A DNA stretch of 64,000 bases from a bacterium BMS3Abin02 (GCA_002897675.1 BDSU01000003.1:19449-83448), one strand, 5' to 3'; shown: positions 3,372 to 34,077, counted from the first letter of the stretch. The notes: generated from the sequence alone by a model not told the origin. A program made the numbers and translations.

Positions 3372-3372
3372 G

Positions 3373-7434: not shown

Positions 7435-7440
7435 GCCCGC

Positions 7441-8322: not shown

Positions 8323-8947
8323 GTGTGGTCGCTCCTGGTGTCGCAGATCGTCGTTGACGAACGACAGTTATCTGGAAGGGGTGTGACGACGCCGGAAAGA
8401 GCTGACGGGTGGTGGCGTCGTCAGGAGCGTGAGGCGATGGACACGCCAACGCTCGGGTGAACCACCCGAGAGCATTGACACATACACATCGTCCACAACA
8501 TGAGGCCCGCAATCTACCGTATCGAGGGAGTCCACGCAAGCATCCGGTCTGTGCCGTATCCCCAGATCGCGCACATAGGGGGTCAGGGGTTGTCGAAGGA
8601 GGAGTTCGGTGTCTTGGTCGTTGAGCGCCGGGCGCTGCTTGTGACAGATGAGACCGGTGCCACGGTGCCGGCTCCAGGCCACCGACTTGTGGCGATCGAT
8701 ACCTGACGCGATACGGCACAGCGTCGAAAGGCCGAGAAGCCGGTAGGTCAGACGTTGCTTTGGCCCGGCCGTCGAGAAGCGATGAACGCGAGCTGGTCGG
8801 CCTCACGTTGGCAACCGACACGGCACGGCCTGAGCAGATCGATGCAACCCACTACTCGCAGGAGATGGAAACTGCCCCTTCGACACCGAGTCCAGCGACC
8901 GTCCTGGCGTTCGGGTGTGCCGCAAGGTTCCGCAGTGGCCTGCGTCT

Positions 8948-10558
8948 TCATGGGGCTGCGGTGGGCTCCGACCGGCTGGGGAGCCTGTAGGCACGTCGCC
9001 AGCAGTTGAGGTATTGCTCCACCTCGTATTCCCAACGGGTGTCGTGCCAGCCCAGTTCGTCTTGGACGATGGTCCGGATTCGGGGAAGGAGGTCGGCACC
9101 GCCGTCCGGGACCAGTAGGCCGACGCGAACACGCCGGAGCAGGAGGTCCTCGAGATGCACGACTGCTTCGGTTCGAGCTGCCCAGCGCAGTTCGGCCCAC
9201 AGCAGCGGTGTACCGGGGATGAGCGAGAGCTCTCCTGGACCCGCGGCCTGGATGAGGGTGGCAGCATCATTCGACCACCAGCCACCCAATCTGCGAGCCA
9301 GGTCCTCGCCGAGTTCTCCAGGTGGGACGTCATCGGCCGAATCGAGCGCAGGGGCATCGTGATCGGCGGGGGCCAGGTCCGGGATGTGGGAACGCAGAGC
9401 GTCGATGGCATCACGGGCGATGAGCCGGAACGTGGTCAACTTGCCTCCGGTGAGGGTGAGCAGACCCTGTTCGTCGAGGATGATGTAGTCGCGCGACTCC
9501 TGCGACGGATTTCGCTTGCCGCTTCCGATGACGGGACGTACGCCGGAGTAGGTGGCTGTCACATCGGCAGGGCGGATATCGAGGGCCGGGAAGAACGCGT
9601 GGACGCCTTCCAGCAGATAGTCGACTTCTCGACGGCTGATGGTCGGCTCGTCGTCGAGCGGAGCAACGTGGTCGACATCCGTGGTGCCGACGATCGTGAC
9701 GCCCTCCCAGGGGAAGAAGAACACGGGTCTGCTGTCCTTGGGATGGAGGACGGCCACCGCTTGTGGAACCGGCAGGCGCCAGGCCTGGATGATCAGGTGA
9801 CTGCCGCGTAGAGGGCGGATCATCGGCTCACCGTCGACCCGGCTCCGCAGCCGGTCGGCCCAGGCACCGGTGGCGTTGATCACCGCCTTGGCGGACGCCT
9901 CGGTGGTTCGACCCGTCTCCGTGTCCAGGACTCGCACGCCCACGACTTGGCCGTCGCGCCGGAGCAGATCGACCACTCGGGCGTAGTTGAGGGCCGTGGC
10001 ACCCGACCGGACGGCTTCTTTGAGCACTCGAAGCACAAGGCGGGCATCGTCGGTGCGGGCGTCGAGATAATGGAAGCCGCCGCGCAGGCCCGTGGCTTTG
10101 ATGTGGGGGGCCAGCAGGCGGAAGTCGCCGGCATCATGGAATGCATGACGCCATTGCAGAGCGAGGAGGTCATACAACATCAGTCCCAATCGGTCCAACA
10201 GTCGACCCGGGTGTTCGCCCCGATAGGTTGCCAGGAGGAAACCGAGCGGGTCGACCAACCCGGGTCCCTCCTGGAGGAGCCGGTTGCGTTCCCGCACCGC
10301 CGCTCGAGTGATGCCGATCTTCCCTTCCTTGAGGTAGCGGAGGCCGCCATGCACGAGCTTCGAGGAGCGGCTCGAGGCGCCCCAGGCGAAATCGCGCTGC
10401 TCGACCAGCAATGCCCGCAGACCGAGTCGGGCGGCCTCGCGCAGGATGGCGGCGCCGGTGATGCCGCCACCGACAACGACGAGGTCCCACGGGCGGTCGA
10501 GCGCGGACCAGATGGCTTCCCGTCGGCCGGCCCAAGAGTTCCCGTGTGGTGCACTCAT
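8948..10558 (-). CDS. glpD: FAD-dependent glycerol-3-phosphate dehydrogenase
   Basis: N-terminal dinucleotide-binding motif DLVVVGGGITGAAILREAARLG and GlpD-like length. The start is taken at the internal ATG (MSAPHGN…), which overlaps the TGA of the upstream oxidase (ATGA). The 616-aa table ORF has an Arg-rich spurious extension. Confidence 0.85.
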   Translation of the reverse strand: MSAPHGNSWAGRREAIWSALDRPWDLVVVGGGITGAAILREAARLGLRALLVEQRDFAWGASSRSSKLVHGGLRYLKEGKIGITRAAVRERNRLLQEGPGLVDPLGFLLATYRGEHPGRLLDRLGLMLYDLLALQWRHAFHDAGDFRLLAPHIKATGLRGGFHYLDARTDDARLVLRVLKEAVRSGATALNYARVVDLLRRDGQVVGVRVLDTETGRTTEASAKAVINATGAWADRLRSRVDGEPMIRPLRGSHLIIQAWRLPVPQAVAVLHPKDSRPVFFFPWEGVTIVGTTDVDHVAPLDDEPTISRREVDYLLEGVHAFFPALDIRPADVTATYSGVRPVIGSGKRNPSQESRDYIILDEQGLLTLTGGKLTTFRLIARDAIDALRSHIPDLAPADHDAPALDSADDVPPGELGEDLARRLGGWWSNDAATLIQAAGPGELSLIPGTPLLWAELRWAARTEAVVHLEDLLLRRVRVGLLVPDGGADLLPRIRTIVQDELGWHDTRWEYEVEQYLNCWRRAYRLPSRSEPTAAP

Positions 10559-12192
10559 GGCACAAGCTTTCCGGGATTCATGAGTCCGTCCGGGTCGAAG
10601 CGACGCAACGCGTCTCCGATCACCGCCACGCCCAGCGCGCCCTTCTCGGTTTGCATGTAGGGGAGGTGGTCCAGACCCACGCCATGGTGATGGCTGATCG
10701 TGCCACCGTGGGCGAGAATCGTCTCGCTGACGGCTCGCTTCAGCCGTCGAGCGCGATCGATGGTCCTCTCGAACTCGGCGGCCGTCCGGAACACGCACGT
10801 TGTGTAGACGCTCGCTCCGGTCGGGTATACGTGGGAAATGTGGGTGAAGGTGAGAATCCGCTCATCGGTGTCATGGAGGGGAGTGTGGAGGGCAGCTTCT
10901 TCGATCGCTTCCACGATTTCGGCGACATGGGTCCAGTCCGTGGCGGTTTCCCAAGTGTCGACGGCATAGCCCATTTGCCACAGGTTGTTCCGCAGATAAG
11001 GTGCGGCGAACCGGCCGGCGAGCCAGCGGTTGCCGAGTGGGCGCCCGACGTTCACGCCGCCGTGGCGTCGGATGATGCGGATGGCGATCCTGCGAGCCCG
11101 CCGCACCTCAACGGCGGCTCCGGTAAAGCCCATGATGAGCAGGCTCTTCGCCTGGCCGATCTTCCGCAGCGAAAAGACTCTCTCCATGGCTGCGATGGCT
11201 CGCGGATGCCCGGCGAGAGCGAGCGTCAGTATGGTTTCTCGGCTGGAGCTGAGTCGAAGCATGGAAAGTGGTATCCCGGCCTGAACCATCTCGCGAATGG
11301 CGTTCTGCCCTGTAGCGAAACCGGGGAAGAACACTCCGTGAAACTGTTCCCGTTCAGGGAACCGTGTCACCCGCACGGTGGCCCGGGTAAGGACCCCGAG
11401 ACGCCCTTCGGAGCCGAGCACGAGCTGGCGGAGATCCGGACCCGCCGCCGAGGCAGGGTAGGGCGGCAATTCGATGGACCCGGCAGGCGCCTCCAATCGT
11501 CCGCCGGCGAAAAGATCTTCCATGCGTCCGTATCCGAGTGACTGCTGGCCACTGGAGCGGGTGGCCACCCAGCCGCCCAGCGTCGAGTACTCGAACGATT
11601 GGGGGAAGTGCCCCAGCGTGTAGCCGCGCGCTCGGAGCTGGCCCTCGAGGTCGGGGCCCGACACGCCGGCGCCGAAGGTGGCGAGGCGGCTCACCTCGTC
11701 GAAATGGAGCAATTGGTTGATGCGTCGCATGTCGATCGTGACGACCGGGCGATCGTCCGGTTGGGGATTGATGTGGCCCAGGACGCTCGTACCGCCCCCG
11801 TAGGGGATGAGGCGAGCCCCGATATGCGCTGCCCACGTGAGTACCTCTCTGACCTCTTCTTCGGTGCGTGGCAGCACCACCCCGTCGGGGAACGAGCCGA
11901 TCCTGCCAGAGCGGAGTGCGACCCAATCGAGGAGGCTTTGGCCGCGAGCGTGCCGGAGCCGAACGCCGGGGTCTGTGAGGACCAGTGGGTGGTGGGGGAG
12001 TCTGGGGGTCGGTACCGTGGCGATCACCGACTCGAACGGCGCGTCGTCCGGAGGCGTGCCGACACCGATGACGTTGCGCAACATGTGGGCCCCGCTGGGC
12101 GACAGAGGATGGTCGGTCCCGTCGTCTCCCCAGCCGTTCCAGCGTCGCATGGCTATGGGACGGTCAAGGTGGCGCTGCCGGCGCTTCGCCAC
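10555..12192 (-). CDS. FAD-linked oxidase (FAD_binding_4 / alkylglycerone-phosphate-synthase- or GlcD-like flavoprotein)
   Basis: 545 aa with FAD-binding PCMH-type N-domain motifs (…RLIPYGGGTSVLG…) and a C-terminal HHGVG motif. It is co-directional with glpD and overlaps it. Confidence 0.75.
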   Translation of the reverse strand: MAKRRQRHLDRPIAMRRWNGWGDDGTDHPLSPSGAHMLRNVIGVGTPPDDAPFESVIATVPTPRLPHHPLVLTDPGVRLRHARGQSLLDWVALRSGRIGSFPDGVVLPRTEEEVREVLTWAAHIGARLIPYGGGTSVLGHINPQPDDRPVVTIDMRRINQLLHFDEVSRLATFGAGVSGPDLEGQLRARGYTLGHFPQSFEYSTLGGWVATRSSGQQSLGYGRMEDLFAGGRLEAPAGSIELPPYPASAAGPDLRQLVLGSEGRLGVLTRATVRVTRFPEREQFHGVFFPGFATGQNAIREMVQAGIPLSMLRLSSSRETILTLALAGHPRAIAAMERVFSLRKIGQAKSLLIMGFTGAAVEVRRARRIAIRIIRRHGGVNVGRPLGNRWLAGRFAAPYLRNNLWQMGYAVDTWETATDWTHVAEIVEAIEEAALHTPLHDTDERILTFTHISHVYPTGASVYTTCVFRTAAEFERTIDRARRLKRAVSETILAHGGTISHHHGVGLDHLPYMQTEKGALGVAVIGDALRRFDPDGLMNPGKLVP

Positions 12193-12866
12193 AGTTCGAT
12201 GCTGTCTTCCATGACCTCCCGACTCACGCGCTCTGCAGCGTCACGATCGTTGGCCCGGGCGGCAGTCTCGAGATCCGAGTAGAAACGTCTCGACCGGTCG
12301 CGGGCCTCGGAAAGAGCGAAGTAGATACTGGCCAATCGCTCGTAGAAACCTGCGAATCCATTCAGGATGAGTGTGAAGATCGGGTTGCCGGATGCGATCG
12401 ACAATCGCCGGTGCACGTCCCAATCGAAGGCGGCGAAGGCCTCAGCCCGATCGGGAAGGTCACGATGCCGAGCGACGAGGGCTGCCACCTCGTCGGGGAC
12501 ACATGCAACTGCAGCAGCTATGTACGGCGGCGCCAGGTACAAGCGGATTTCCAGCAGATGCTCCACGAAGTCGGTGGAGAGGTGTCGCGAGTGTTCGACC
12601 AGGGCACCGAGCACGTTGAGGCCACCTTCCTGCCAGAAGTGATTCACCACCGTGCGCCTGCCCTGACGGACGGTGACCCACCCATCCCGCTCCAGGCGCT
12701 GAAGGGCCTCGCGCAACGTGGGGCGCGTGACTCCGAGACGGATAGCGAGTTGGCGTTCCCCCGGGAGCTCGGACCCTGGTGGGAACGTCCCATCCAACAC
12801 CGCCTCGACGAGCGAATGCTCGGCGTGGTCGGCCGGCCGGACGGGAGCAATCCACGTGGCGGTCAT
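12153..12866 (-). CDS. GntR-family transcriptional regulator (FadR/FCD subfamily)
   Basis: N-terminal wHTH (…GERQLAIRLGVTRPTLREALQRLERDGWV…) and a C-terminal all-helical FCD-like domain. It is the first gene of the gntR / oxidase / glpD string. Confidence 0.85.
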   Translation of the reverse strand: MTATWIAPVRPADHAEHSLVEAVLDGTFPPGSELPGERQLAIRLGVTRPTLREALQRLERDGWVTVRQGRRTVVNHFWQEGGLNVLGALVEHSRHLSTDFVEHLLEIRLYLAPPYIAAAVACVPDEVAALVARHRDLPDRAEAFAAFDWDVHRRLSIASGNPIFTLILNGFAGFYERLASIYFALSEARDRSRRFYSDLETAARANDRDAAERVSREVMEDSIELWRSAGSATLTVP

Positions 12867-12877
12867 ACGTTGTTCCT

Positions 12878-12901
12878 AACTGGTGAGTGGTCTTACCAGT
12901 T
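12878..12901. promoter_or_regulatory. candidate FadR-type operator: inverted repeat AACTGGT-N10-ACCAGTT immediately upstream of the gntR start codon
   Basis: aactggtgagtggtcttaccagtt lies 12-35 nt upstream of the ATG at 12866. The TGGT…ACCA core is the classical GntR/FadR operator half-site arrangement. Confidence 0.4.
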
Positions 12902-13700
12902 GCCATGTTACACCTGAGAACCCGGGAAGTGGATACGGAATCCGTCCGTCTTCCGGGGGTTGTCGACTCTCGTTCCGAGTCGTTCGGTCATCGTCATATG
13001 TACTGCCGATCGGCACCATGGTTCCGGTCGCCGGCCGTTCACAGAGCAGCAGAATCTCGAACGGTGCCGCCCAGGACCAGAGGCGGTTCGAACAGGCCAC
13101 CGGTCGTCGCGTGGGCTCCGGTTCGTATCTTGACGACCGACGTAATCGATTCGCGGGAACGCCACATCGGAGCCGTCGCTTTCGCAACTCTGTTCGAAGG
13201 CGAGAGGGTCACGATCGAGTGAACCGTGATGCCATGATGGCCCACTCGTGATGCTCTAACCCGGGCTGCTCGGCGAGCGGTTCGAGGTTTCATCGGCACC
13301 AATCGGCGCCGATGTTTGCGAAATGAGCGCTCACATGCAGCAAAGGCCCGATAAACCTGCGAAAGTCCGAGACAGGGTCATCGGAATCGGCCATACTGCC
13401 CGCATGCATTTTGCCAGGTGTCGCTCGAGGGCGTTTTGGCTCACCCAACATCCACGATCTGCGTCCTGCCAGAGACGGAGACGCGCGGACAACTCGGACA
13501 TCGCAGCAACTCTCTGGGCATCGCTCGACAGTCGAGTGTGTCCTCGACACGAGGAACACACCTCACACACAGCTACCGCACAGACCACCAACTTTGCTCA
13601 AAAGGAGTCCGGATGACGTGTCGATGGATGGTCGAAGAGGAGACGAAAGGACCCGCTGCATCTCCCGGTTCGCGCGAACGTTGCGGAGGCTCACCTTCCC

Positions 13701-14276
13701 GTGAGAGACTCTGTCATCATGACGAATACTGAGATGCGTGACGCCGTCGGGCTCTTATGGCCCGAGCTCGACTGGATCCAAGATGAGGATCTCCGAGAGA
13801 GAACCCTCGCCACCTGGGTACTCGCATTCGAGCGCAGTCCGCTGGAACCGGACGACCTGCATGAGATCCCCTTTACACTGCTCGTCCCCGACTGCCCGAC
13901 GTCGTTCATGGAACACAAACGCTGTGTCGTGCACATCGCCCGCGGAGCTGCCGAAGCGATGCAGGAGTTTCTCGGGGACGCACTCACCATCGATATGGAC
14001 ACGGTGATCGCCGGCGGGATTCTGATCGATGTAGGCAAGCTGCTCGAGTACGAAAAGGTCGCCGGCGAGGCCGTCCAGAGCGAGTTGGGCCGCTACCTGC
14101 GCCATCCGTTCACAGGTGTGTCGCTCGCCATGGAGTGCGGTGTCCCCGACTCGGTTTGTCATATCATCGCCGCCCACTCCAAAGAGGGGGATCTGATCAC
14201 GCGTTCCGTGGAGGCAACGATTCTGCACCATGCCGACTTCATGAGTTTTCTTCCTTTCAAGGACCTGACGAGGTAG
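13701..14276 (+). CDS. HD-domain protein (putative metal-dependent phosphohydrolase)
   Basis: 191 aa with His/Asp-rich segments (…CVVHIARG…, …IIAAHSKEGD…LHHADF…). The alternative start MTNTEMRD is at 13719. It is the first gene of the co-directional cluster. Confidence 0.5.
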   Translation: MRDSVIMTNTEMRDAVGLLWPELDWIQDEDLRERTLATWVLAFERSPLEPDDLHEIPFTLLVPDCPTSFMEHKRCVVHIARGAAEAMQEFLGDALTIDMDTVIAGGILIDVGKLLEYEKVAGEAVQSELGRYLRHPFTGVSLAMECGVPDSVCHIIAAHSKEGDLITRSVEATILHHADFMSFLPFKDLTR

Positions 14277-14282
14277 CCACCA

Positions 14283-15683
14283 ATGAAGAGTCCCCATCCC
14301 GTTTCCGAGATGATCACCGCCCCGATGGCCCGCTGGGCCGCCGACCTGACATTCGCCGACTTGTCCGAAGAGGCGGTGCGCCAGGCGAAGCGCTATCTGC
14401 TCGACTCGCTGGGTTGCGCTCTCGGCGGCTATACCCAACACGATGTGAAGATCCTGCTCGACGTCTTGGAGGAGACCGCCGGCTCGGGTCCGGCCACGGT
14501 GATTGGCACCGGCGCAAGGGTGGACGCCGTGTCCGCATCTCTTGTCAATGCCCTGATGGTGAGGGCGATGGACTACAACGACATCTACTGGCAACAGGAC
14601 CCGTCGCATCCCTCCGACATCATCCCCGGCGCTCTCGCCCTCGCCGAGCGCGCAGACGGAAACGGCAAGGAGCTATGCGTCGGAATCGTCCTTGGTCACG
14701 AATTCGAGATGCGGCTTTGCGAGGCTGCGTTTCCAGGCATTCGTGAGCGAGGCTGGCACCATGCCACCTTCACGGCTTTCGCCGCCGCCCTCGTGGCGGG
14801 GCGGATGCTGCATCTCGACGCCGAACGCATCCAACATGCAGTCGGGATCTCGGGAAGCTCCCACGGGACGTTCGGCGCGGTGACAGCCGGCAAGCTCACG
14901 ATGATGAAGAACACCGTGGATCCTCTTGCGACGCAACGCGGGGTCCTGGCCGCCCTCCTTGCAGAACGGGGCTACACAGGACCAGAGCACGTGATCGACG
15001 GCAAGGAAGGATTGGTCGAAACGCTCGGCCCCGACTGGAAACTGGACATCCTGACGGACGGGCTCGGGGAATCGTGGCGTATCACACGCTGCGGCATGAA
15101 GGCATTTCCGACCGAAGCCCTGACACATACACCGATTTCCGCAGTGCTCGACCTGGTGACGGAGCATGACCTTTCTGCAGACGACGTCGAGGAGGTCCGT
15201 ATCCGATCTCTCGCGCGAGCTGCGGACATCCTGGCGGATCCCAGCAAGTACACGCCGCACAACAGAGAGACCGCCGACCACAGCCTGCCCTACGTGATTG
15301 CTGCGGCTTTGGTCGACCGACAGGTCACGCCGCTCCAATTCACGACCGCCAAGATCGAAGATCCTCGCATTCGGGCACAGCTGAACAAGGTGATCGTGGT
15401 CGCGGACCCGGAGATCGAGAAGGACTTCCCGGCGCGGCAACGTGTCGCCGTGACCATCACCACCATCGACGGCCGAAACCTCACGAAGGAGCTGGACTAT
15501 CCAAAAGGGCATCCAAGCAATCCGCTCACCACCACTGAGATCGAGCAGAAGTTTGATGCACTTGCGGCGCCGGTCATGTCGTCAGGACGTCGCCAACAGA
15601 TCAAAGATGCCGTCTGGAACCTGGAGAACCTCGACACCGTGCGTGATCTGACCGAACTGTTGCGTGTTGATGGTGTGTCGTGA
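14283..15683 (+). CDS. MmgE/PrpD-family protein (2-methylcitrate dehydratase / cis-aconitate decarboxylase family)
   Basis: 466 aa of full-length MmgE/PrpD architecture. Its stop overlaps the next gene's start by 4 nt. Confidence 0.85.
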   Translation: MKSPHPVSEMITAPMARWAADLTFADLSEEAVRQAKRYLLDSLGCALGGYTQHDVKILLDVLEETAGSGPATVIGTGARVDAVSASLVNALMVRAMDYNDIYWQQDPSHPSDIIPGALALAERADGNGKELCVGIVLGHEFEMRLCEAAFPGIRERGWHHATFTAFAAALVAGRMLHLDAERIQHAVGISGSSHGTFGAVTAGKLTMMKNTVDPLATQRGVLAALLAERGYTGPEHVIDGKEGLVETLGPDWKLDILTDGLGESWRITRCGMKAFPTEALTHTPISAVLDLVTEHDLSADDVEEVRIRSLARAADILADPSKYTPHNRETADHSLPYVIAAALVDRQVTPLQFTTAKIEDPRIRAQLNKVIVVADPEIEKDFPARQRVAVTITTIDGRNLTKELDYPKGHPSNPLTTTEIEQKFDALAAPVMSSGRRQQIKDAVWNLENLDTVRDLTELLRVDGVS

Positions 15684-17626
15684 CCAGGCCCCAAACGGTC
15701 GTTGAGGCGATAACGCAAACCCATCTCGCCGGCACTGTCAAGAGTGGATCGGTCCAAGCCGGTGACTTTGTGACCATTCGCCCCGACCACGTGCTGACCC
15801 ACGACAACACGGCTCCCGTGCTGAAGAAGTTCCAGACGATGGGGGCAACACGCGTCTCGGATCCAAAACAGCCCGTGTTCGCTCTCGACCACGATATCCA
15901 GAACACGTCGGAGGCCAACCTGGCGAAGTACCGGAAGATCGAGGAGTTCGCCAGGAGTCAGGGCGTCGATTTCTACGCCGCCGGCGAAGGAATCGGCCAT
16001 CAGATCATGGTCGAACAGGGATATGTCACTCCCGGTTCGTTCGTCGTCGCATCCGACTCGCATGCGAATATCTACGGTGCGCTCGGAGCGATAGGAACGC
16101 CTGTCGTGCGTACCGACGCCGCCGCGATCTGGGCGACTCGCGAGTTCTGGTGGCAGGTTCCGCGCACCGTCCGCGTCGAGTTGATAGGAGAGCTTCCTTC
16201 GGGAGCAGCCGGAAAGGATGTGATCCTCATCCTATGCGGGCTCTACTCCCATGGAGAAGTACTCAATGCCGCCGTCGAATTCACCGGACCCGGAGTGAAG
16301 AGCCTGACCATGGAAGCACGGCTCACCATCTCGAACATGACGACCGAATGGGGTGCCTTGGTCGGATGGTTCCCCGTCGACCGGATCACCCTCGACTACC
16401 TCGCGTGGCGGCGTGGAGCCATCGGACCCAGAGGACGGCGACGCCTTGGTGACATCCGAGATACGGTGGCCGGTTATGCGAGCGCCGATCCGGATGCCCG
16501 CTACGCGGCGAACATCGTGTTCGACCTCGGCGAAGTCATTCCGCATGTCAACGGTCCCGATACCGTGCAGGCGACGAGGTCGCTCATGACCATCCAGGAA
16601 CAGGCCGTGTCCATCGACAAGGCCTACCTGGTCTCGTGTGTGAATTCGCGCTTCGAGGATCTCGCCGCGGCAGCGAGGGAACTCGTGGGCAGACACGTCG
16701 CGGACGGCGTCGAGCTGTATTTCGCTGCAGCCAGTCGCGAGGTTCAAGAGCGTGCCGAAGCTGCCGGACACTGGCAGACGATCCTCGATGCGGGCGGGCG
16801 ACCGTTGCCACCCGGGTGCGGTCCGTGCATCGGTCTTGGGACCGGTCTGCTCGCAGCGGGGGAGGTGGGGATCTCTGCGACGAACCGCAACTTCAAAGGC
16901 CGCATGGGCTCACGCGACGCTCAATGCTATCTCGCCAGCCCTCAGGTGGTGGCCGCCTCCGCGGTGGCCGGCCATATCTGTGGTCCGGGTGACTGGCCAG
17001 ACCATGTTCTGCAGCCGAGTATCGACGTCGCCGACCGCTCGGTGCCAGATGTTGCGAAGAGTGTGACGATCAAAGAAGGGTTCCCTGCCCGGCTGGAAGG
17101 CCGGATCGTGTTGCTCACCCAGGACAACATCAATACCGACGGCATCTATGGCAAGGACTACACCTATCGTGACGACATGACTCCCGAAGCCATGGCCCGT
17201 GTCGTCATGGAGAACTACGATCCGGAGTTCGCCTCCATGATCCGACCCGGTGACATCCTCATCGGCGGTCACAACTTCGGGACAGGCTCGAGTCGGGAAC
17301 AGGCGGCGACCGCTCTCCAGGCGGCGGGCATTGCCATGGTGATTGCCTCCAGCTACTCACAGACGTACCTGCGCAATGCATTCAACAACGGCTTTGTGTG
17401 CGTCGAATGCCCTGAGCTCGTCGCCTACCTGCGGGAGATGTTCGCAACGGCGATCGACCGCGGCGCCCGTTCCATCTTCTCGGATGACACGTTGAGTGTC
17501 GACTTCACGACCGGGAAGGTCTCCGTCGAAAACCGCGTGTTCCGTTTTCCCGTCCTCGGTGAAGTTCCCCAATCTCTCGTGGCGGCGGGCGGTCTGGAGA
17601 ACGCCGTTCGCCGGAGGCTTTCATGA
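15680..17626 (+). CDS. aconitase-family hydro-lyase with fused LeuC-like large and LeuD-like small domains
   Basis: 648 aa with the ASDSH motif, the Fe-S ligand region PGCGPCIGLGTG, NRNFKGRMG, and a C-terminal swivel domain with GHNFGTGSSRE. Confidence 0.8.
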   Translation: MTRPQTVVEAITQTHLAGTVKSGSVQAGDFVTIRPDHVLTHDNTAPVLKKFQTMGATRVSDPKQPVFALDHDIQNTSEANLAKYRKIEEFARSQGVDFYAAGEGIGHQIMVEQGYVTPGSFVVASDSHANIYGALGAIGTPVVRTDAAAIWATREFWWQVPRTVRVELIGELPSGAAGKDVILILCGLYSHGEVLNAAVEFTGPGVKSLTMEARLTISNMTTEWGALVGWFPVDRITLDYLAWRRGAIGPRGRRRLGDIRDTVAGYASADPDARYAANIVFDLGEVIPHVNGPDTVQATRSLMTIQEQAVSIDKAYLVSCVNSRFEDLAAAARELVGRHVADGVELYFAAASREVQERAEAAGHWQTILDAGGRPLPPGCGPCIGLGTGLLAAGEVGISATNRNFKGRMGSRDAQCYLASPQVVAASAVAGHICGPGDWPDHVLQPSIDVADRSVPDVAKSVTIKEGFPARLEGRIVLLTQDNINTDGIYGKDYTYRDDMTPEAMARVVMENYDPEFASMIRPGDILIGGHNFGTGSSREQAATALQAAGIAMVIASSYSQTYLRNAFNNGFVCVECPELVAYLREMFATAIDRGARSIFSDDTLSVDFTTGKVSVENRVFRFPVLGEVPQSLVAAGGLENAVRRRLS

Positions 17627-17651
17627 CATGACAACGCACAAGGAGGATGCA

Positions 17652-18833
17652 ATGACTCGAAGGACCGTCGTGACGATGCCAGGTGATGGCATCGGCGCCT
17701 TTGTCCTCCCTGAATCGATCCGCGTCCTCGACGCCGTCGGTTTCGAAGCAGACTACGTCCAGGCCGACATCGGCTGGGAGTGCTGGCGGGAACAGGGCAA
17801 CCCCCTCCCTGAGGCTACGATCGATCTTCTGGCCAAGCACAAGCTCGGTCTGTTCGGCGCGATCACCTCCAAGCCAAAGGCAGCGGCGGAAGCGGAGCTC
17901 GCTCCTGAATTACGCGGCCAGGGCCACGTGTACTTCAGCCCAATCGTGAGCCTTCGTCAGCGCTTCGGCCTGGACATCTGCGTTCGACCCTGTCGTTCCT
18001 ACACGGGCAATCCGCTCAATTTCGTTCGCCAAACCGGTAACGGTGTCGAGGAGCCGCCCGTAGACGCGGTGATCTTTCGTCAGAACACCGAAGGTCTCTA
18101 CGCCGGTATCGAGTGGACCGATCCTCCCGCCGAGGTTCTTGCGGCGCTGGCAACGCACCCCAAGTTTGCGCCGTTCACCTCGATTCCGAGCGCCGATCTG
18201 GCGATCTCCACCCGCATATTTTCACGGAACGCATGCCGGCGCATCGTCCGTTCCGCTTTCGAATACGCCACAAAGCACGGCTACGAGACGGTCACCGTGT
18301 GTGAGAAGCCCAACGTCCTGAGGGAAACATCGGGCATGCTCGAGGAGGTCGCGAAAGAGATCGGCGCCGACTACCCGGACATCGAGCGACGGTCGACGAA
18401 CATCGATGCCCAGATGATGTGGCTCACCAAGAACCCGGAGAACTACGGAGTCCTGGTGGCAGGAAACCTGTTCGGTGACATCATCTCCGACGGCTTCGCA
18501 GGACTGGTCGGTGGGCTCGGGTTCGCCTGCTCGGGGAACATCGGGGACGAGGTGGCAGTATTCGAACCGACACACGGCTCGGCGCCCAAATACGCGAACC
18601 TGGCGCCGTCGATTGTCAACCCGATCGCCATGATTCTGGCGTCTGCAATGCTGCTCGATCATGTAGGAGAGGAAGACGGGGCCGACCGGATCAGAGAAGC
18701 AGTCGGGAACGTCATTCGTGATGGTGCGGTCAGAACCTACGACATGATGCACCTTCCCGGAGGGCCGGGAGTCGTCGACGCGGGTGCTGCGACCACCTCC
18801 GAAATGACCGACGCCATTGTGAGCGCCTTATGA
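17652..18833 (+). CDS. isocitrate/isopropylmalate-dehydrogenase-family beta-hydroxyacid oxidative decarboxylase (IDH / IPMDH / tartrate-DH / homoisocitrate-DH family)
   Basis: Motifs MPGDGIG, NLFGDIISD and HGSAPK. The start is chosen at the ATG preceded by AGGAGG at 17641-17646. The table ORF (17496) overlaps the upstream gene. Confidence 0.8.
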   Translation: MTRRTVVTMPGDGIGAFVLPESIRVLDAVGFEADYVQADIGWECWREQGNPLPEATIDLLAKHKLGLFGAITSKPKAAAEAELAPELRGQGHVYFSPIVSLRQRFGLDICVRPCRSYTGNPLNFVRQTGNGVEEPPVDAVIFRQNTEGLYAGIEWTDPPAEVLAALATHPKFAPFTSIPSADLAISTRIFSRNACRRIVRSAFEYATKHGYETVTVCEKPNVLRETSGMLEEVAKEIGADYPDIERRSTNIDAQMMWLTKNPENYGVLVAGNLFGDIISDGFAGLVGGLGFACSGNIGDEVAVFEPTHGSAPKYANLAPSIVNPIAMILASAMLLDHVGEEDGADRIREAVGNVIRDGAVRTYDMMHLPGGPGVVDAGAATTSEMTDAIVSAL

Positions 18834-20041
18834 GGTCGCGAAGCGGCGAAGCGGGTTTCACCGGTCCTGGCGTCCGGTCCGATCTGCGCGTGAAAGTCGA
18901 GGAACGAGAACGTGGCGGTATCGTCGTCGATCTGGTGTCAAGGGTCGAGGCCTACTACGGGAATGCGATTCGGCGTCAGGTCCGCGACCAACTCGAACAT
19001 CTCGGTCTCGAGAGCGCGCACGTCACGATCAACGACATGGGTGCGCTGCCTTTCACCATCGCCGCACGAGTTGAGACGGCGGCTCGGAGGGCGGGGCTCC
19101 TCGACGAACACCATCTCGATACCCTCTCCGAACCCGACCGCGCTCCGTCCGAGCGGCGGCGATTGCGACGATCACGCCTCTACCTTCCGGGCAACGATCC
19201 GAAGTACATGGTCAATGCGGGCCTCTATGGCTCCGACGCTCTCATCCTCGATCTCGAGGACTCCGTACACCCGGCCGAGAAGGACGGCGCCCGCCTTCTG
19301 GTGGCCAATGCGATCCGGCGCCTGGATTTCGGACCGGCAGAGATCATGGTCCGTATCAATCAACTTCCGGTCGGACTCGAAGACCTCGCGACGGTGATCC
19401 CCAGCGGACCAGACCTGATCCTCGTCCCGAAAGTGGAAGACCCGAGCGAAATCGAAGAGGTCGACCGGACGATTGCCAGGATGCTCGAAGAGCTGGGTTG
19501 GCAGCGGCCGATCTGGATCATGCCGATCCTCGAGTCCGCTCTCGGAGTCGAGATGGCGTTCGACATCGCCCGCTGTTGCGACAGGGTCGTCGCTCTCACC
19601 GTGGGACTCGAAGACTTGACCGCGAACCTCGGTGTGCCCGGATCTGCGAAGGAGCAGGCGACACGATACGCGCGTGCCCGCATTGTGAATGCTGCGGTCG
19701 CCGCAGCCGTTCAGCCGATCGACTCGGTGTTCGCCGACGTGTCCGATCTCGAGGGATTGGCATCCTGGTGCGAGAGATCGAAGGCGCTGGGCTTCGAAGG
19801 AATGGGCTGTCTTCATCCGCGTCAGATCCCGATTGTTCATCAGGCATTCACTCCCACTCCCGAGGAGATCGAGCGGGCGCAAGCGATCGTTGCCGCCTTC
19901 GAGCGGGCACGAGAAGAGGGTTTGGCGATCGTCAGTATTGGTTCCAAGATGATCGACGCCCCGATCGTGCAAAGAGCTGTGAAGGTCGTCGAGCGGGCTC
20001 GAGCGCTGGGCCTCTTGGTGGAAGAGAGGGGTGGGCAATGA
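18830..20041 (+). CDS. citrate-lyase acyl-carrier (CitD-like) domain fused to citrate-lyase beta / citryl-CoA-lyase (CitE, HpcH/HpaI family) domain
   Basis: The N-terminal roughly 100 aa aligns with CitD (…SRVEAYYGNAIRRQVRDQLEHLGLESAHVTINDMGALPFTIAARVETA…, and an RSD segment at the prosthetic-group Ser position). The rest is CitE-like (LYLPGNDPKYMVNAGLYGSDALILDLEDSV). Confidence 0.75.
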   Translation: MRSRSGEAGFTGPGVRSDLRVKVEERERGGIVVDLVSRVEAYYGNAIRRQVRDQLEHLGLESAHVTINDMGALPFTIAARVETAARRAGLLDEHHLDTLSEPDRAPSERRRLRRSRLYLPGNDPKYMVNAGLYGSDALILDLEDSVHPAEKDGARLLVANAIRRLDFGPAEIMVRINQLPVGLEDLATVIPSGPDLILVPKVEDPSEIEEVDRTIARMLEELGWQRPIWIMPILESALGVEMAFDIARCCDRVVALTVGLEDLTANLGVPGSAKEQATRYARARIVNAAVAAAVQPIDSVFADVSDLEGLASWCERSKALGFEGMGCLHPRQIPIVHQAFTPTPEEIERAQAIVAAFERAREEGLAIVSIGSKMIDAPIVQRAVKVVERARALGLLVEERGGQ

Positions 20042-21615
20042 TGGCGGGCTTCACCGAGAACGCCGCGGGTCGGAGGGTTCCGGCCGTCGTGAACGGCCAT
20101 GAGCAGACCCCGTACCGAGGCATCGGCGGCCACCGGCCGGCCGGCAAGAAGGCCGGGCCTCCGATCCGAGTCTCGTCCGACTACCCGGACAACGGAGACA
20201 AACGTGTCGGATCGCTGGAAGTGGCCCTCGAGCTGTGCAGTCTGGCCGATGGGATGGTTGTTTCCACTCATCATCACCTTCGCAACGGTGACCGTGTGGC
20301 TCTCAGCCTCCTCAATGCTGCGAGACGCATGGGGATTCGCGATCTGACCTGGTTTCCGAGTGCGTCATTCCCCTGCCACGAACCGGTGATCGATCTGATG
20401 GAGGCCGGCGTCGTGCATCACATCGAAGGGAGCATGAACGGGCCGCTGGGGGAGTACTGCTCACAGGGGAGGATGCGTGGACTGGGGGTGCTTCGCTCAC
20501 ACGGCGGCCGTTGGCAGGCGATCTCCGATGGCGAAGTGCACATCGATATTGCCGTGATCGCCGCTCCGTGCGCAGACATGTTCGGCAACGCAAACGGTGC
20601 ACAAGGCAAGTCCGCGTGTGGATCTCTCGGCTTCGCTCTGGCAGATTCCCTGTATGCCGATCGAGTCATTGTCGTTACCGACGGACTCGTTCCATTCCCA
20701 TGCGTTCCCTGGCAGATACAGGGCAACAACGTGGACTATGTGGTCGAGGTGGCCTCGATCGGAGATCCGAGCAAGATCGTCTCCGGCACGACCCAGATCA
20801 CGAAAAGCCCGGATCGGCTCAAGATCGCCGAGTACACGGCTCGGTTTGTCAGAGATTCAGGCATCCTGCGCGATGGTTTCTCCTTCCAGGCGGGAGCGGG
20901 GGGCATCTCACTTGCCTTCACCGCGTTCCTCGCCGACATGATGCGAAACTCCGGCGCCACTGCACGGTTCGTCCGCGGTGGCTCCACCCGCGTGCTCGTC
21001 GACATGTTGCGGGAAGGCCTGACCGACTACATCCTCGACGGTCAAACATTCGATCTCAGTGGTGTCCAATCGATTGCGACAGACTCGCGCCACGTGGCGA
21101 CTTCCCCATTCACTTCGTACAACTTCAACGGCAAAGGCAACTTCGCGAGCATGGTCGATGCCGTTGTTCTCGGCGCAACCGAGGTCGACGTCGATTTCAA
21201 CGCCAACGTGGTGACACACTCAGACGGACGTCTACTGCATGGCATCGGCGGATGGCAGAACTGCCTGTTCGCCGGTTGCACGATCTTGGCGATGCCGTCG
21301 TTTCGCGACCGAAATCCCGTCATTCGAGATCGAGTGACCACTCTCACGGGGCCGGGCGAACTCATCGATGTCGTGGTGACCGAGCGGGGTGTCGCCATCA
21401 ATCCGAGGCGCCAGGACCTGATCGATGCAACCAAGGCGTCTGATCTTCCCATCGTCGACATTCGGCACTTGCAGGCCGACGTGGAGCGGATCTGTGGAGG
21501 CAAGCCGGATCCGGCCGCACTGACGGAGCAGCCCGCGGCTGTGATCAAGTGGGTGGACGGCACAGTCCTCGACACCGTGTGGCAAACGGAAAACCGGCGA
21601 ACCCAGGGCTCGTAG
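20038..21615 (+). CDS. citF: citrate lyase alpha subunit / citrate CoA-transferase (CitF family)
   Basis: About 525 aa of CitF-like sequence. The ATG at 20038 overlaps the citDE stop (ATGA). The 705-aa table ORF (19498) is an out-of-frame 5' extension across citE. Confidence 0.8.
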   Translation: MMAGFTENAAGRRVPAVVNGHEQTPYRGIGGHRPAGKKAGPPIRVSSDYPDNGDKRVGSLEVALELCSLADGMVVSTHHHLRNGDRVALSLLNAARRMGIRDLTWFPSASFPCHEPVIDLMEAGVVHHIEGSMNGPLGEYCSQGRMRGLGVLRSHGGRWQAISDGEVHIDIAVIAAPCADMFGNANGAQGKSACGSLGFALADSLYADRVIVVTDGLVPFPCVPWQIQGNNVDYVVEVASIGDPSKIVSGTTQITKSPDRLKIAEYTARFVRDSGILRDGFSFQAGAGGISLAFTAFLADMMRNSGATARFVRGGSTRVLVDMLREGLTDYILDGQTFDLSGVQSIATDSRHVATSPFTSYNFNGKGNFASMVDAVVLGATEVDVDFNANVVTHSDGRLLHGIGGWQNCLFAGCTILAMPSFRDRNPVIRDRVTTLTGPGELIDVVVTERGVAINPRRQDLIDATKASDLPIVDIRHLQADVERICGGKPDPAALTEQPAAVIKWVDGTVLDTVWQTENRRTQGS

Positions 21616-21658: not shown

Positions 21659-23314
21659 TTACTGATCGCCGGCGATACGGCTCTCCACGGTCGCCAGCAC
21701 CTTGGATGCCAGCGTCCTAGAAGACTCCAATGCAGCGCTTCGTCGAGCTTGCAGGTGTTCTGTTTCGGGATGATCTGGAAGTGAGCTGAGGTTGATGCGT
21801 ACGTTCAGAGACGCACCCTCTGCGGCAGCGAGCGCACACATGGCAGCGACGCCGGTATCGCTGACGGCGCTCTCGTTGCCGCTCTTGGCAACCACCGCCG
21901 CGGCGTCGAGGGCAGCGACGCAATGCTCGATCACTTCGAGAGGGACGATGCTGGCGGTCAGTGTGGCGTCCTGCACGGCACGGTCGCGAGCGAGACGTTC
22001 GGCGTCGGTCTTGCGAGGCAGGCGCATCGCCTCCATCAGCGAGTCGAACGACTCGGTGTCCCGATCGACCGCGTCGAGGAACCAGTCCTTGAGTAGCTGT
22101 GCCGACCGGCCGGTGTCCTCCATCTTGGTGTCGCTCGTCTTGGAGAACGTGAGTGCCGCGACCATCGAAGTCAGTGCCACCGACAGGGAGGCAGCCAACG
22201 CGGCGACACTGCCACCTCCGGGCGTCGGCGTGCCCGCCGAGAGGACGTCGGCGAAGTGTCGAAGCGAGTGGTTGACGAGGCCCGACGGTACCCCTTGATA
22301 TCGGTACTCGATCACTTTGTCTGCCGGATCGAACGGTGAGACATCGTCCAGGCCGAGGCTCAGCGCCGCGATATGCATTCGTTCTGCTTCCGGGACGCCA
22401 GTCGTCTTGCCCTGGGCACGCAAGTAGTGATCCCCGGCGGCAAGCATCGCGCGGCGGGGGACAAGGCCTACGATCTCGCTACCCGTTACGCGCACGCCGA
22501 GCCGGCCGGCCTCCTCGCAAGCCGCGTCGAAGACGGCATGAAGTGAGGTGATGTCTGGATCGGTCAAGTTGAACGACACCTGCGCTCTTCCGTACTCCTC
22601 GATGTACCAGCCGACCCCTCGTAGGTGGGTAAACCGTCCCGGCTCGCGCAGAGCAACACCGTTCGCATCACGTTCGACCTTGCCGTCGGGACCACGTTTT
22701 GGTCGCCCACTTTCCCTGAGAGCGCCGGCGATCCTGTTGGCGATTCTGCGGTCGCGGGTGTTGAGGTTCACGTTGTAGGCAATCAGGAAGTTGCGTGCGC
22801 CGATCGCGATCGCTCCGTTCTTCGCGTTGAATCCGGTCGGACCAAAGTCGGGCTCGTCCTCACGATCGGCAAGCCCTTCGTACTCACCGCGGCGAACGTC
22901 GGCGAGTGATCGGTGCTCCGGGCACGATGCGGCTTCCCCGTACAAGTACACGGGGATTCGGAGTTCGGCTCCAACGCGTTCGCCCAGACGCTGTGCGATC
23001 TGAACGCAATCCTCCATGGAGGCTCCGTCGAGTGGAACGAACGGGCAAACATCGGTGCTTCCCATTCGTGGATGTTCACCATGGTGGGTCCGCATGTCGA
23101 TCAGGTCGGCTGCCTTCTCGATGGCGGCGAACGCGGCTTCCTCCACGGCTTCCGGCGATCCCGCGAACGTCATCACGGTGCGATTCGTGGCAGCCCCAGG
23201 GTCGACATCGAGCAGTGTCACGCCGTCGACGGCGCCGATGACGGCGGCGATCGCATCGATGACACGCCGATCGCTACCTTCGCTGAAGTTGGGAATGCAT
23301 TCGATGAGTTTCAT
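21659..23314 (-). CDS. ftcD: glutamate formimidoyltransferase fused to formiminotetrahydrofolate cyclodeaminase (FtcD-like)
   Basis: N-terminal formiminotransferase (MKLIECIPNFSEGSD…) and a C-terminal cyclodeaminase helical domain. The start is taken at the internal MKLIE… ATG. Confidence 0.8.
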   Translation of the reverse strand: MKLIECIPNFSEGSDRRVIDAIAAVIGAVDGVTLLDVDPGAATNRTVMTFAGSPEAVEEAAFAAIEKAADLIDMRTHHGEHPRMGSTDVCPFVPLDGASMEDCVQIAQRLGERVGAELRIPVYLYGEAASCPEHRSLADVRRGEYEGLADREDEPDFGPTGFNAKNGAIAIGARNFLIAYNVNLNTRDRRIANRIAGALRESGRPKRGPDGKVERDANGVALREPGRFTHLRGVGWYIEEYGRAQVSFNLTDPDITSLHAVFDAACEEAGRLGVRVTGSEIVGLVPRRAMLAAGDHYLRAQGKTTGVPEAERMHIAALSLGLDDVSPFDPADKVIEYRYQGVPSGLVNHSLRHFADVLSAGTPTPGGGSVAALAASLSVALTSMVAALTFSKTSDTKMEDTGRSAQLLKDWFLDAVDRDTESFDSLMEAMRLPRKTDAERLARDRAVQDATLTASIVPLEVIEHCVAALDAAAVVAKSGNESAVSDTGVAAMCALAAAEGASLNVRINLSSLPDHPETEHLQARRSAALESSRTLASKVLATVESRIAGDQ

Positions 23315-23324
23315 ACGACCTCCA

Positions 23325-23576
23325 TCAGAGATCCGGCTCTTCTTCAGGGGACAGGAAGGTCTCCAGCGGTTCGCGGGCAACATAATGTGACGTCATGGAC
23401 TCTTCCCACTCCAGGTACCGTTCCTCGCACCGCACCGAGCAGAACTCGGAACCGGCTTGCCGGGGGGCACCGTCCCAGAGGCACGTCGTGTGGCTCCGCC
23501 GCAACCACGGTGGATCGTACAGGGGATATCGTCCATGACTCCGGCGGTAGTCACCGGGCATCGGCTCGACATCCAT
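23325..23576 (-). CDS. hypothetical small Cys-containing protein (MDVEPMPGDYRRSHGRYPLYDPPW…CLWDG…CSVRCEERY…)
   Basis: C-terminal 84 codons of the 469-aa table ORF. GC3 is about 76 %. It lies directly upstream of ftcD on the same strand. Confidence 0.2.
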   Translation of the reverse strand: MDVEPMPGDYRRSHGRYPLYDPPWLRRSHTTCLWDGAPRQAGSEFCSVRCEERYLEWEESMTSHYVAREPLETFLSPEEEPDL

Positions 23577-29679: not shown

Positions 29680-29990
29680 GGTTCGAGCCGGATCTCGAGA
29701 GAGTCGCCCGGCCGGAGACGCCGCTCATACACCAACGCATCGGCGCTCGGCTTTCGTAGCCAGTTGAGCCCCAGGAGCGCCGCGCCGATCAGGAGCAGGC
29801 GAACGTCACCTGTTCGTAGACCTCGAAGAGCGCTTCTTACGGCGATGCGACCCAGTTGCATGGAGTCCAGCGTAGTTGCGAAGCCGGCATCCGTTACACT
29901 CCGGAGACTTCGCCCTGCCACCGTCGGGACCGGAATCGGAACGACGCAGGTCCACAAGGCGCGTAGAGTACGGGCATGCTCAATGACACC

Positions 29991-30077
29991 ATGAAGAAGA
30001 TCGTGATCTGGGTGATCGTCCTTGGGATGGTCCTGTCACTCGCCGTCGGGCTCGCTGCGCTGGTGTTCTCTTCGTGA
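29991..30077 (+). CDS. 28-aa hydrophobic micro-ORF MKKIVIWVIVLGMVLSLAVGLAALVFSS
   Basis: Not in the ORF table because it is under 60 aa. Its TGA overlaps the GTG start of the ThiS-like gene (GTGA). It encodes a single predicted TM helix. Confidence 0.25.
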   Translation: MKKIVIWVIVLGMVLSLAVGLAALVFSS

Positions 30078-30268
30078 AGGTCGTGCGCCGCCACCCTCGA
30101 CGCGAGATCGACATTGAGGGGCCGACGACGGTGCGTGCCCTTCTCGAACACCTGGACATCGTCCCAGAGACGGTGCTGGTTATCCGCGGCAGCGACCTGC
30201 TCACCCGCGACCAACGGCTCGCGGCGGACGACACCGTGGAGTTGCGGCCTGTTATTTCGGGGGGCTGA
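30074..30268 (+). CDS. ThiS/MoaD-family ubiquitin-like sulfur-carrier protein (TtuB/CysO-like) ending in Gly-Gly
   Basis: 64 aa with the C-terminal sequence …VELRPVISGG*. Its stop overlaps the ATG of the PP-loop gene (TGATG). Confidence 0.65.
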   Translation: MKVVRRHPRREIDIEGPTTVRALLEHLDIVPETVLVIRGSDLLTRDQRLAADDTVELRPVISGG

Positions 30269-31984: not shown

Positions 31985-32230
31985 CTATGGCTCGATGAAG
32001 ATGCACTCTCCTGGGCATTCTTCTGCAGATTCGATAACCATCTCATCCTGTCCTGCAGGGACAACGGCAATGCCCTGAGCCCCTTCCGCGTTGCCTTCGG
32101 ACGCAGCAAAGATCTTGTCGCCCTCTTTGACATAGGCGAGTCCGTCATCCAGCAGCACGAAAACATCCGGGGCGATCTCTTCGCAGAGGCCGTCACCTGT
32201 ACACAGATCTTGGTCGATCCAAACCTTCAT
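31985..32230 (-). CDS. small ferredoxin (single Cys cluster: CxxDxxC…CP)
   Basis: 81 aa, [24 protein letters not shown]…[11 protein letters not shown]. Confidence 0.75.
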
Positions 32231-34024: not shown

Positions 34025-34077
34025 GGAGATCCGAGATGCTCGTTGCGCCCTCCCAGTCATTCCTGGTTTCCTAGCCG

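Follow-up and report, generated by a model that had tools for sequence, protein, structure and literature searches.

Introduction

Citrate lyase is a textbook enzyme that needs a covalent arm resembling coenzyme A (CoA), together with three helper genes to build and charge this arm. Its isolated α subunit acts as a citrate CoA-transferase (EC 2.8.3.10) and its isolated β subunit as a citryl-CoA lyase (EC 4.1.3.34). Within the γ subunit CitD of Escherichia coli and Klebsiella pneumoniae, Ser14 is the attachment site of the 2'-(5''-phosphoribosyl)-3'-dephospho-CoA group. Here, we describe a relative of this enzyme that is encoded in a 64,000-nucleotide stretch of DNA from bacterium BMS3Abin02 (GCA_002897675.1 BDSU01000003.1:19449-83448; the whole stretch of 64 kb is referred to as the window), where a CitD-like domain is fused in frame to CitE in a protein of 403 amino acids. 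As judged from the alignments, the cofactor-carrying Ser14 is replaced by Arg or Lys in the clade to which this fusion belongs.

The fusion as such is already known. It was noticed in Ignavibacterium album, where a CitE–CitD fusion (IALB_1147) lies beside CitF (IALB_1146) and was proposed on the basis of annotation only as a possible citrate lyase or reverse tricarboxylic acid (TCA) cycle enzyme (PMC3362086), and it is routinely annotated. The fusion in the window is real, and it is widespread rather than peculiar to this DNA. The searchable literature yielded no description of the serine replacement, of its correlation with missing accessory genes or of the six-gene module discussed below, and neither 'homocitrate lyase' nor the combination of citrate lyase with homoaconitase, PrpD and an HD domain gave any result there.

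The CitD-like/CitE fusion protein and CitF

The fusion gene occupies positions 18830..20041 on the plus strand. Its N-terminal CitD-like (γ) domain (residues 1-89, 18830..19096) is followed by a linker of about 22 amino acids (19097..19162), which is variable in the alignment of homologues and forms a block of low predicted local distance difference test score (pLDDT of 68) in the AlphaFold2 model, and by the CitE (β) lyase domain (residues 112-403, 19163..20041 including the stop codon). Residues 17-88 match the Pfam ACP family PF06857 with E=2.7e-19 and 69.7 bits (cutoff 25.1), and the γ domain scores 61.2 bits against TIGR01608, just below the cutoff of 63.5. An hhalign comparison of a profile of 31 homologous N-terminal domains with E. 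coli CitD gives a probability of 98% over 77 gapless columns that include the conserved D-x-G-A-L block. The assignment of this N-terminus to CitD that was made in the first-pass annotation is thus upheld, as is the presence of the conserved γ block.

Residues 114-330 match HpcH_HpaI (E=1.3e-48), and the CitE model TIGR01588 spans residues 111-394 with 250.7 bits, which is below its equivalog cutoff of 443.4. The gene for a CitF-type acyl transferase (α subunit, 525 amino acids, plus strand) was correctly placed directly downstream at 20038..21615, its start codon overlapping the stop codon of the fusion in an ATGA. It matches PF04223 with E=2e-128 and 429.6 bits and scores 474.6 bits against TIGR01584, just under the equivalog cutoff of 501.45. 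As both CitE and CitF remain below the NCBI citrate-lyase equivalog cutoffs, CitF by a small margin, a paralogous specificity is suggested.

The DLEDS motif, Glu235 and Asp262 of the CitE domain are invariant across the family alignment, and its best Foldseek matches are malyl-CoA lyase, CLYBL and citramalyl-CoA lyase. For CitF, the relatives in the PDB are entries 2hj0 and 1xr4. The AlphaFold2 model (predicted TM-score of 0.88 for the whole protein) has the γ-like domain as a compact α/β unit packed against the CitE barrel. Sixteen positions of this domain are invariant across the family, including a D-x-G-A-L-P block. A sequence search of the PDB with the γ domain found no relative, and among the PDB relatives and fold matches examined there is no solved structure of CitE or CitF together with a γ domain.

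Five independent contigs encode the identical protein, the database entry of which bears the name 'citrate lyase subunit beta [bacterium BMS3Abin02]', and the fused architecture is common to all 120 best homologues. This recurrence, together with the at least 562 genome loci that have the fusion, excludes a frameshift or an assembly artefact. The 403-residue protein is a genuine γ–β fusion of a citrate-lyase-like enzyme that belongs to a deep clade crossing phylum borders.

Replacement of the attachment serine

The motif around the attachment site reads A-G-T-L-E-S14-G-D in E. coli CitD and A-G-T/S-L/I-E-S-S-D in five other canonical CitDs from four phyla. In the fusion, the codons cgg-tcc-gat at 18875..18883 (plus strand) encode Arg16-Ser17-Asp18, which align with canonical Ser14-Gly/Ser15-Asp16. 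Three independent gapless alignments agree on this register: the coordinates of the NCBIfam model (protein residues 16-89 on model positions 14-87), the hhalign comparison and a MAFFT alignment with four canonical CitDs and intermediates. The first-pass annotation had placed the prosthetic-group serine on this RSD segment. The segment is the right one, while the serine itself is not: the column of Ser14 is taken by Arg16, and Ser17 falls on canonical position 15.

The replacement is general. Among 139 representative clusters at 50% identity, the motif is RSD in 121, KSD in five, the canonical SSD in three, RAD in two and RGD in two, with single cases of KTD, RTD, PQD and KQD and also of RSC and GPT (misaligned); the Ser14 column is thus Arg or Lys in 134 of the 139. 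RSD is likewise found in 119 of the first 120 homologues. We further used the N-domain profile to retrieve 80 genome-contig loci (L005-L084), most of them from Acidobacteriota and a few from Verrucomicrobiia and Binatia. In one of these the motif is unreadable, and 78 of the remaining 79 have RSD, the exception being RAD in L049.

One clostridial lineage has neither Ser nor Thr at canonical positions 14-15 and still keeps intact operons with CitF. Its fused proteins read KQD (P0387 and P0391) or PQD (P0392 and P0393, from Ihubacter sp. rT4E-8). Their operons have a conserved order (L090 and L092) of LysR, M28 and M20 peptidases, a DcuC/AbgT-type transporter, the fusion and CitF, and represent a second fused γ–β lineage; in Ihubacter sp. 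rT4E-8 (L092, CP187532.1) the operon spans 4626-12739. From this content, it may be that an acyl-amino-acid conjugate is taken up and hydrolysed to feed the lyase. In Anaerosolibacter carboniphilus (L173, JACHEN010000006.1, 8372-13981), a stand-alone CitD of 91 amino acids reads A-G-H-E-N-A-Q-D and thus also misses the attachment serine. It is encoded in a locus resembling those for citrate fermentation, with a 2-hydroxycarboxylate (2HCT) transporter, CitD, CitE, CitF and OadA. The context of the clostridial loci without Ser14 suggests true citrate use.

Absence of linked loading genes

In agreement with the first-pass annotation, the window contains no citC, citX or citG. Precomputed Pfam assignments covered the called genes between about 1-30 kb and 33-55 kb, and the remaining long open reading frames (ORFs) were scanned with Pfam. 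A phmmer search of all six-frame ORFs of the window with CitC, CitX and CitG of E. coli K-12 gave no match at E<=1. A second, unfused citD accompanied by citC, citX and citG, which would make the fusion a redundant copy, is not seen in the part of the BMS3Abin02 genome that was examined.

With the same E. coli queries, no CitC, CitX or CitG match was obtained in 1.93 Mb of flanking sequence from 110 loci with a γ domain lacking Ser14, 77 of which have at least 5 kb on both sides. The two clostridial loci L092 and L173 have none of the three genes within 10 kb. Four weak CitX matches (E 0.004-0.03) turned out to be galactose-1-phosphate uridylyltransferases with an HPHCQ motif and were discarded as chance matches. 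As positive controls, we used five plasmid or chromid loci with an ESSD-type CitD (Peptoclostridium, Azospirillum, Gluconobacter, Fusobacterium and Streptococcus equi), after a clostridial CitE locus that had been picked as canonical control proved to encode a CitD without the serine. CitC was recovered in all five (E from 1e-27 to 1e-104) and CitX and CitG in four (E from 1e-19 to 1e-79). Counting the E. coli locus, linked accessory genes are therefore present in six of six canonical loci against none of 110 (Fisher's exact p = 2.6e-9, uncorrected and for loci that are not phylogenetically independent).

One of the controls deserves separate mention. On plasmid EAL2_808p of Peptoclostridium acidaminophilum (L174), a canonical set of citC, citX(G) and citD-E-F at 6540-18312 adjoins genes for methylaspartate mutase, methylaspartase and histidine utilization (hut, including ftcD). 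The set probably encodes the acyl-carrier-protein (ACP)-dependent citramalate lyase of the methylaspartate pathway. The lyase operon of the window also lies beside an FTCD gene.

The first-pass annotation had left a choice between loading genes encoded elsewhere and a different mode of activation. This choice was well posed, and the evidence favours the lack of a classical prosthetic group over a new activation route: Ser14 has become Arg, and about 110 related loci are devoid of the accessory genes that all six controls have.

A classical ACP mechanism with a shifted site is the most serious alternative, and we regard it as unlikely. Here, Ser17 would carry the usual cofactor, CitG, CitX and an acetylating enzyme would be encoded at unlinked positions, and the fusion would fix a 1:1 ratio of γ to β. 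Ser17 is present in 130 of the 139 representative clusters (about 94%), which is above expectation for a position that merely requires a small residue, and therefore a shift of the attachment site by one residue is possible. It is also present in 78 of the 79 readable genome-contig loci and in 119 of the first 120 homologues, and the flanking Arg and Asp are invariant, as would be the case for a recognition motif. Accessory genes can also be partly unlinked in a canonical system: the Fusobacterium locus L177 has citC and lacks citX and citG within 10 kb. In Geobacter sulfurreducens citG and citX are retained without a lyase, so that these genes can live apart from it (PMC2996986). Against the shifted site stand the three gapless alignments, all of which put Ser17 on position 15 and not 14, the uniform lack of linked accessory genes across many phyla, and the existence of RAD, RGD, KQD, PQD and AQD members in apparently intact operons.

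Operon architecture and distribution

The fusion and CitF are the last two of six genes that follow each other head to tail on the plus strand. The first encodes a divergent HD-like protein (13701..14276; the ORF starts with a GTG at 13701, while the deposited protein of 185 amino acids starts with the ATG at 13719). It is followed after 6 nt by a gene for an MmgE/PrpD-family protein of 466 amino acids, presumably a dehydratase (14283..15683, Pfam MmgE_PrpD_N and _C). The third gene, the GTGA start of which overlaps the stop codon of the second, encodes a hydratase of the aconitase family with fused large and small subunits, of the Lys4 (fungal homoaconitase) type and 648 amino acids long (15680..17626, Pfam Aconitase and Aconitase_C). 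After another 25 nt comes a β-decarboxylating dehydrogenase of the isocitrate/homoisocitrate/isopropylmalate family (393 amino acids, 17652..18833, Pfam Iso_dh with E=3e-78), which is joined to the fusion gene by an ATGA overlap, just as the latter is to CitF. Scans for promoters and terminators gave no signal above chance within the block, so that it reads as a single operon.

The fusion occurs in at least 562 genome loci from Acidobacteriota, Verrucomicrobiia and Binatia, with further members labelled as Planctomycetota, Clostridia and Gammaproteobacteria. Synteny of all six genes, from the HD-like gene through to CitF, is maintained in 69 of the 80 genome-contig loci and also in L088, L089 and L091, which are contigs of other labelled phyla; in seven of the 80 the fusion and CitF stand alone, without the HD-like gene. 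Clustering of all flanking ORFs of the 80 loci revealed no seventh conserved gene, the best family being present in only 24. The flanking genes are lineage-specific (rhodanese, thioredoxin-like, CtaB, sigma-54 activators and TonB receptors). The acidobacterial metagenome-assembled genome (MAG) MFD01299.bin.2.91 has at least four loci with an RSD-type γ domain (L009, L033, L052 and L055): one full six-gene operon, one pair of fusion and CitF, and two that are apparently truncated. Two proteins from the representative search, P0241 (the top match, with 3678 amino acids and 44 stretches) and P0354, are unrelated repeat proteins and were discarded.

A reverse search of metagenome contigs with the HD-like protein yielded at least 583 loci. 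In 49 of 54 of these, the PrpD-like gene comes next after the HD-like gene. Among 22 with enough downstream sequence all six genes are found in 14, five (L100, L109, L114, L137 and L159) lack the fusion, two have a hydantoinase-A-like ORF at the position of CitF and one is without the PrpD-like gene. In L159 (3977-14439) a Liv-type ABC transporter occupies the place of the lyase genes after the HD-like, PrpD-like, aconitase-like and dehydrogenase genes. In L107 (3086-9911) the PrpD-like gene is missing and the HD-like gene directly precedes the aconitase-like gene.

Pathway enzymes and candidate substrate

The PrpD-like protein reaches no NCBIfam equivalog (113 bits for the PrpD equivalog against cutoffs of 458-950) and can be assigned to the MmgE/PrpD superfamily only. 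Among solved structures, iminodisuccinate epimerase and IRG1/cis-aconitate decarboxylase are closer to it than PrpD is. The aconitase-like protein passes the homoaconitase equivalog TIGR00139 with 706 bits (cutoff 529.9). Homoaconitases of the fungal type catalyse only the second half-reaction, between homoaconitate and homoisocitrate, and this explains why a separate dehydration enzyme is needed (PMC3556520). By analogy, the PrpD-family dehydratase of the operon would fit the gap at the first dehydration. It is PrpD dehydratase that fills such a step in the methylcitrate cycle. The best NCBIfam models for the dehydrogenase are those of the homoisocitrate dehydrogenases AksF2 (270 bits) and AksF (263 bits), below their cutoffs of 540 and 500, and its closest relatives are NAD-dependent isocitrate dehydrogenases and the homoisocitrate dehydrogenases of Thermus.

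The four activities are probably those of one round of 2-oxoacid elongation or shortening in which a lyase takes the place of the synthase. Our best guess for the substrate is homocitrate, with 2-oxoadipate being interconverted with 2-oxoglutarate and acetate. A citrate version (2-oxoglutarate to or from oxaloacetate and acetate) or an alkyl-malate are the alternatives. The lyase would act as the last step, or as the first if the pathway runs backwards.

That the window encodes an ordinary citrate lyase for citrate fermentation, or else a redundant paralogue in decay with odd features that lack functional meaning, is very improbable. The Pfam families are indeed those of CitD, CitE and CitF, and the authors of the Ignavibacterium study took their fusion for an ATP-independent citrate lyase (PMC3362086). 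The 64 kb window encodes neither a citrate transporter nor an oxaloacetate decarboxylase, however, and the CitE domain is far below the citrate-lyase equivalog cutoff. Signs of purifying selection, namely strict synteny, identities of 60-90% between phyla and numerous invariant residues in catalytic motifs, speak against decay.

The HD-like protein

The HD-like gene is the most conserved of the operon, with about 8000 or more homologues, 71-92% identity across phyla and 68 invariant columns. The protein scores 25.2 bits against Pfam HD (cutoff 22), and all members of the family have Ile or Ala in place of the His in the HD doublet. The AlphaFold2 model has a pLDDT of 92.7, and Foldseek retrieves a generic HD fold only, the best match being YhaM with a TM-score of 0.58.

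The first-pass annotation had singled out this protein as the partner of the fusion, and this does not hold. The HD-like gene tracks the PrpD and aconitase genes more closely than CitDE: it precedes PrpD in the 49 of 54 loci mentioned above, does without CitDE in five of 22, and is itself missing beside CitDE and CitF in seven of 80. Neither it nor the fusion strictly needs the other.

These observations also bear on a new activation route, in which an enzyme other than CitX or CitG would install or maintain the cofactor, for example through a phosphodiesterase or phosphatase activity of the HD-like protein towards CoA or the holo-domain. Such a route seems improbable to us. It would give a role to a strongly conserved protein that has no step in the pathway and is encoded beside the fusion in 69 of 80 loci. 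The linkage pattern nevertheless argues against an activator of the γ domain, which makes this function unlikely, and CitDE and CitF lack the HD-like gene in all clostridial loci as well. Furthermore, the HD doublet has lost its His, the fold search gave no specific relative, and HD enzymes are hydrolases or oxygenases and not phosphoribosyl transferases. By analogy with PrpF beside AcnD, we conjecture that the HD-like protein may act on an aconitate-type intermediate.

A possible mechanism

The loss of Ser14, accompanied in one lineage by that of every nearby serine, and the systematic absence of the loading and charging genes argue that the covalent arm is not used. The reading that we prefer, and to which we give slightly better than even chances, is that of a prosthetic-group-independent lyase that would cycle CoA, with the γ domain as an adaptor, inside a module for 2-oxoacid elongation or shortening that possibly handles homocitrate. 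Enzymes lacking Ser14 would then have no need for CitG, CitX and CitC. CitF would draw on a catalytic amount of acetyl-CoA, either free or bound non-covalently, and move its CoA to the hydroxy-tricarboxylate, with release of acetate, and the CitE domain would cleave the resulting acyl-CoA into the 2-oxoacid and regenerated acetyl-CoA. The γ-like domain would no longer be a covalent carrier and would serve as a fixed adaptor between the β and α subunits, with Arg16, more speculatively, as a non-covalent anchor for the phosphate end of CoA. Within the six-gene operon, the lyase may provide the final step, or the initial one in the reverse direction.

Besides the conservation of Ser17 and the partial unlinking in L177, several points weigh against this reading. 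The absence of accessory genes refers to the window and the flanks of the loci only. Some of the RSD-clade variants without a serine (L091, at 1x, and L049) come from low-coverage or long-read assemblies, so that sequencing errors are possible. If free CoA esters are used, the reason for retaining a highly conserved γ domain is conjectural. In two soil metagenome loci, the place of CitF directly after the fusion is taken by a hydantoinase-A/oxoprolinase-like ORF of 677 amino acids with an IAIDTGGTFTD motif (L152, 16751-18781, and L157, 9746-11773), and neither has CitF within 10 kb. Finally, the pocket of the dehydrogenase has Ser-Pro-Ile-Val where E. coli isocitrate dehydrogenase has Ser113-Leu-Asn115-Val, and a Val in the position of Arg85 of Thermus homoisocitrate dehydrogenase. 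As it fits the determinants of neither enzyme, any assignment of a substrate from sequence is tentative.

A wider formulation is more tentative, and we place it somewhat short of an even chance: a cross-phylum class of Ser14-less enzymes would work on non-covalently held CoA and would in most members form the entry or exit step of an undescribed six-gene module. Such a module would turn a 2-oxoacid and acetate into the next-longer 2-oxoacid, or the reverse, at no net cost of an acetyl-CoA thioester, for example 2-oxoglutarate and acetate into 2-oxoadipate and CO2.

Taken together, the results point to thousands of relatives with a replaced attachment serine and no linked helper genes, from this marine MAG as well as from Clostridia, Planctomycetota, Verrucomicrobiota and Acidobacteriota of soil, which suggests a second, simpler way of running citrate-lyase chemistry. 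If true, the automatic annotations of 'citrate lyase subunit beta' and of a reverse-TCA potential in these genomes are misleading. The six-gene operon is among the more conserved uncharacterized metabolic modules of peat and soil bacteria. Once known, its substrate would fill a gap in models of carbon flow, and the module could possibly serve metabolic engineering as an ATP- and CoA-sparing means of adding or removing C2 units.

Other features of the window

Upstream of the operon and divergent from it, a GntR/FadR-type regulator of 237 amino acids is encoded at 12153..12866 on the minus strand (precomputed Pfam GntR and FCD assignments from identical contigs). It is not conserved beside the cluster in other phyla and is a possible local regulator in the lineage of the window only. 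The gap of 834 bp between this gene and the HD-like gene (12867-13700) is unusually long for a region without a called gene. No sigma-70-like promoter was found in it, and a comparison of this leader and seven related loci with Rfam revealed no riboswitch, the leader itself matching no family at E<=1. Downstream and convergent with CitF, a fused glutamate formiminotransferase-cyclodeaminase (FTCD_N, FTCD and FTCD_C, about 551-574 amino acids) is encoded at 21659-23383 on the minus strand; outside the window's own lineage (L001-L003) this arrangement is not conserved.

Farther away, 32210-40953 contains a complete Pup-proteasome set consisting of an ARC/Mpa ATPase, two genes of the Pup-ligase family, Pup and the proteasome α and β subunits, along with WYL regulators of the PafB/PafC type. 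These genes suggest an actinobacterial affiliation of the MAG, which NCBI lists as unclassified. A block for assimilatory sulfate reduction at 304-8322 (sulfite reductase, parts of sirohaem synthase, phosphoadenosine phosphosulfate reductase, uroporphyrinogen methylase and a rhodanese-fused pyridoxal phosphate enzyme) adjoins a PAS histidine kinase. A second, unrelated HD-domain ORF (59102-59857, plus strand, Pfam HD with E=1e-5) lies upstream of scpA, and a tyrosine recombinase of the XerC/D type is encoded at 57471-58409 on the same strand. None of the long minus-strand ORFs at 56357-58075, 29980-31161 and 62970-63914 is matched by a Pfam family, and these are possible shadow ORFs.

Comparison with known systems

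The classical CitDEF enzyme of E. coli, Klebsiella and lactic acid bacteria (EC 4.1.3.6) shares with the window the γ, β and α families and their D-E-F order, and the D-x-G-A-L block and the γ fold are kept in the fusion. The window CitF scores 340 bits against E. coli CitF and the CitE domain 183 bits against E. coli CitE. The window enzyme differs from the classical one in the fusion of γ to β, the change of Ser14 to Arg, the lack of linked citC, citX and citG that is common to the 110 loci, and the scores below the equivalog cutoffs. In its operon it is combined with a dehydratase, a hydratase and a dehydrogenase, where the classical system has a citrate transporter and oxaloacetate decarboxylase. 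The system of I. album is closer, with a γ–β fusion beside CitF and no mention of accessory genes; the original paper describes neither a serine replacement nor a six-gene operon (PMC3362086).

The clostridial loci L173 (unfused) and L092 (fused) likewise miss Ser14, have adjacent CitE and CitF and lack nearby loading genes. Unlike the window, their CitE and CitF are much closer to the canonical proteins (499-525 bits against E. coli CitF), their motif is xQD instead of RSD, and their context is a transporter with OadA or peptidases. Citramalate lyase of glutamate-fermenting clostridia (EC 4.1.3.22), of which L174 is likely to be an example, is also a citrate-lyase paralogue acting on another hydroxy acid, but the L174 locus differs from the window clade in its ESSD-type CitD and its linked citC and citX/G.

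With the α-aminoadipate type of 2-oxoacid elongation (homocitrate synthase, Lys4 or LysTU and homoisocitrate dehydrogenase), the operon has in common the Lys4-type homoaconitase and a related dehydrogenase, as well as the requirement for an additional dehydratase, which also applies to fungi and Thermus (PMC3556520). In place of homocitrate synthase, which is absent from the window, there is a condensing or cleaving enzyme of the citrate-lyase type. The dehydratase is from the PrpD family, and no lysine-specific genes are nearby.

The last group for comparison pairs a CoA-transferase with a CitE-like lyase, as Ict/RipA and Ccl/RipC do in itaconate degradation, and includes citryl-CoA lyase, CitE of Mycobacterium tuberculosis and human CLYBL. 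These systems have no γ-like domain and their transferases are unrelated to CitF, whereas the fusion in the window retains the former and is accompanied by the latter. They provide the best structural matches to its CitE domain, and they resemble it in the mode of action proposed here, in which a free CoA thioester would be made by the transferase and cleaved by a lyase with the CitE fold.

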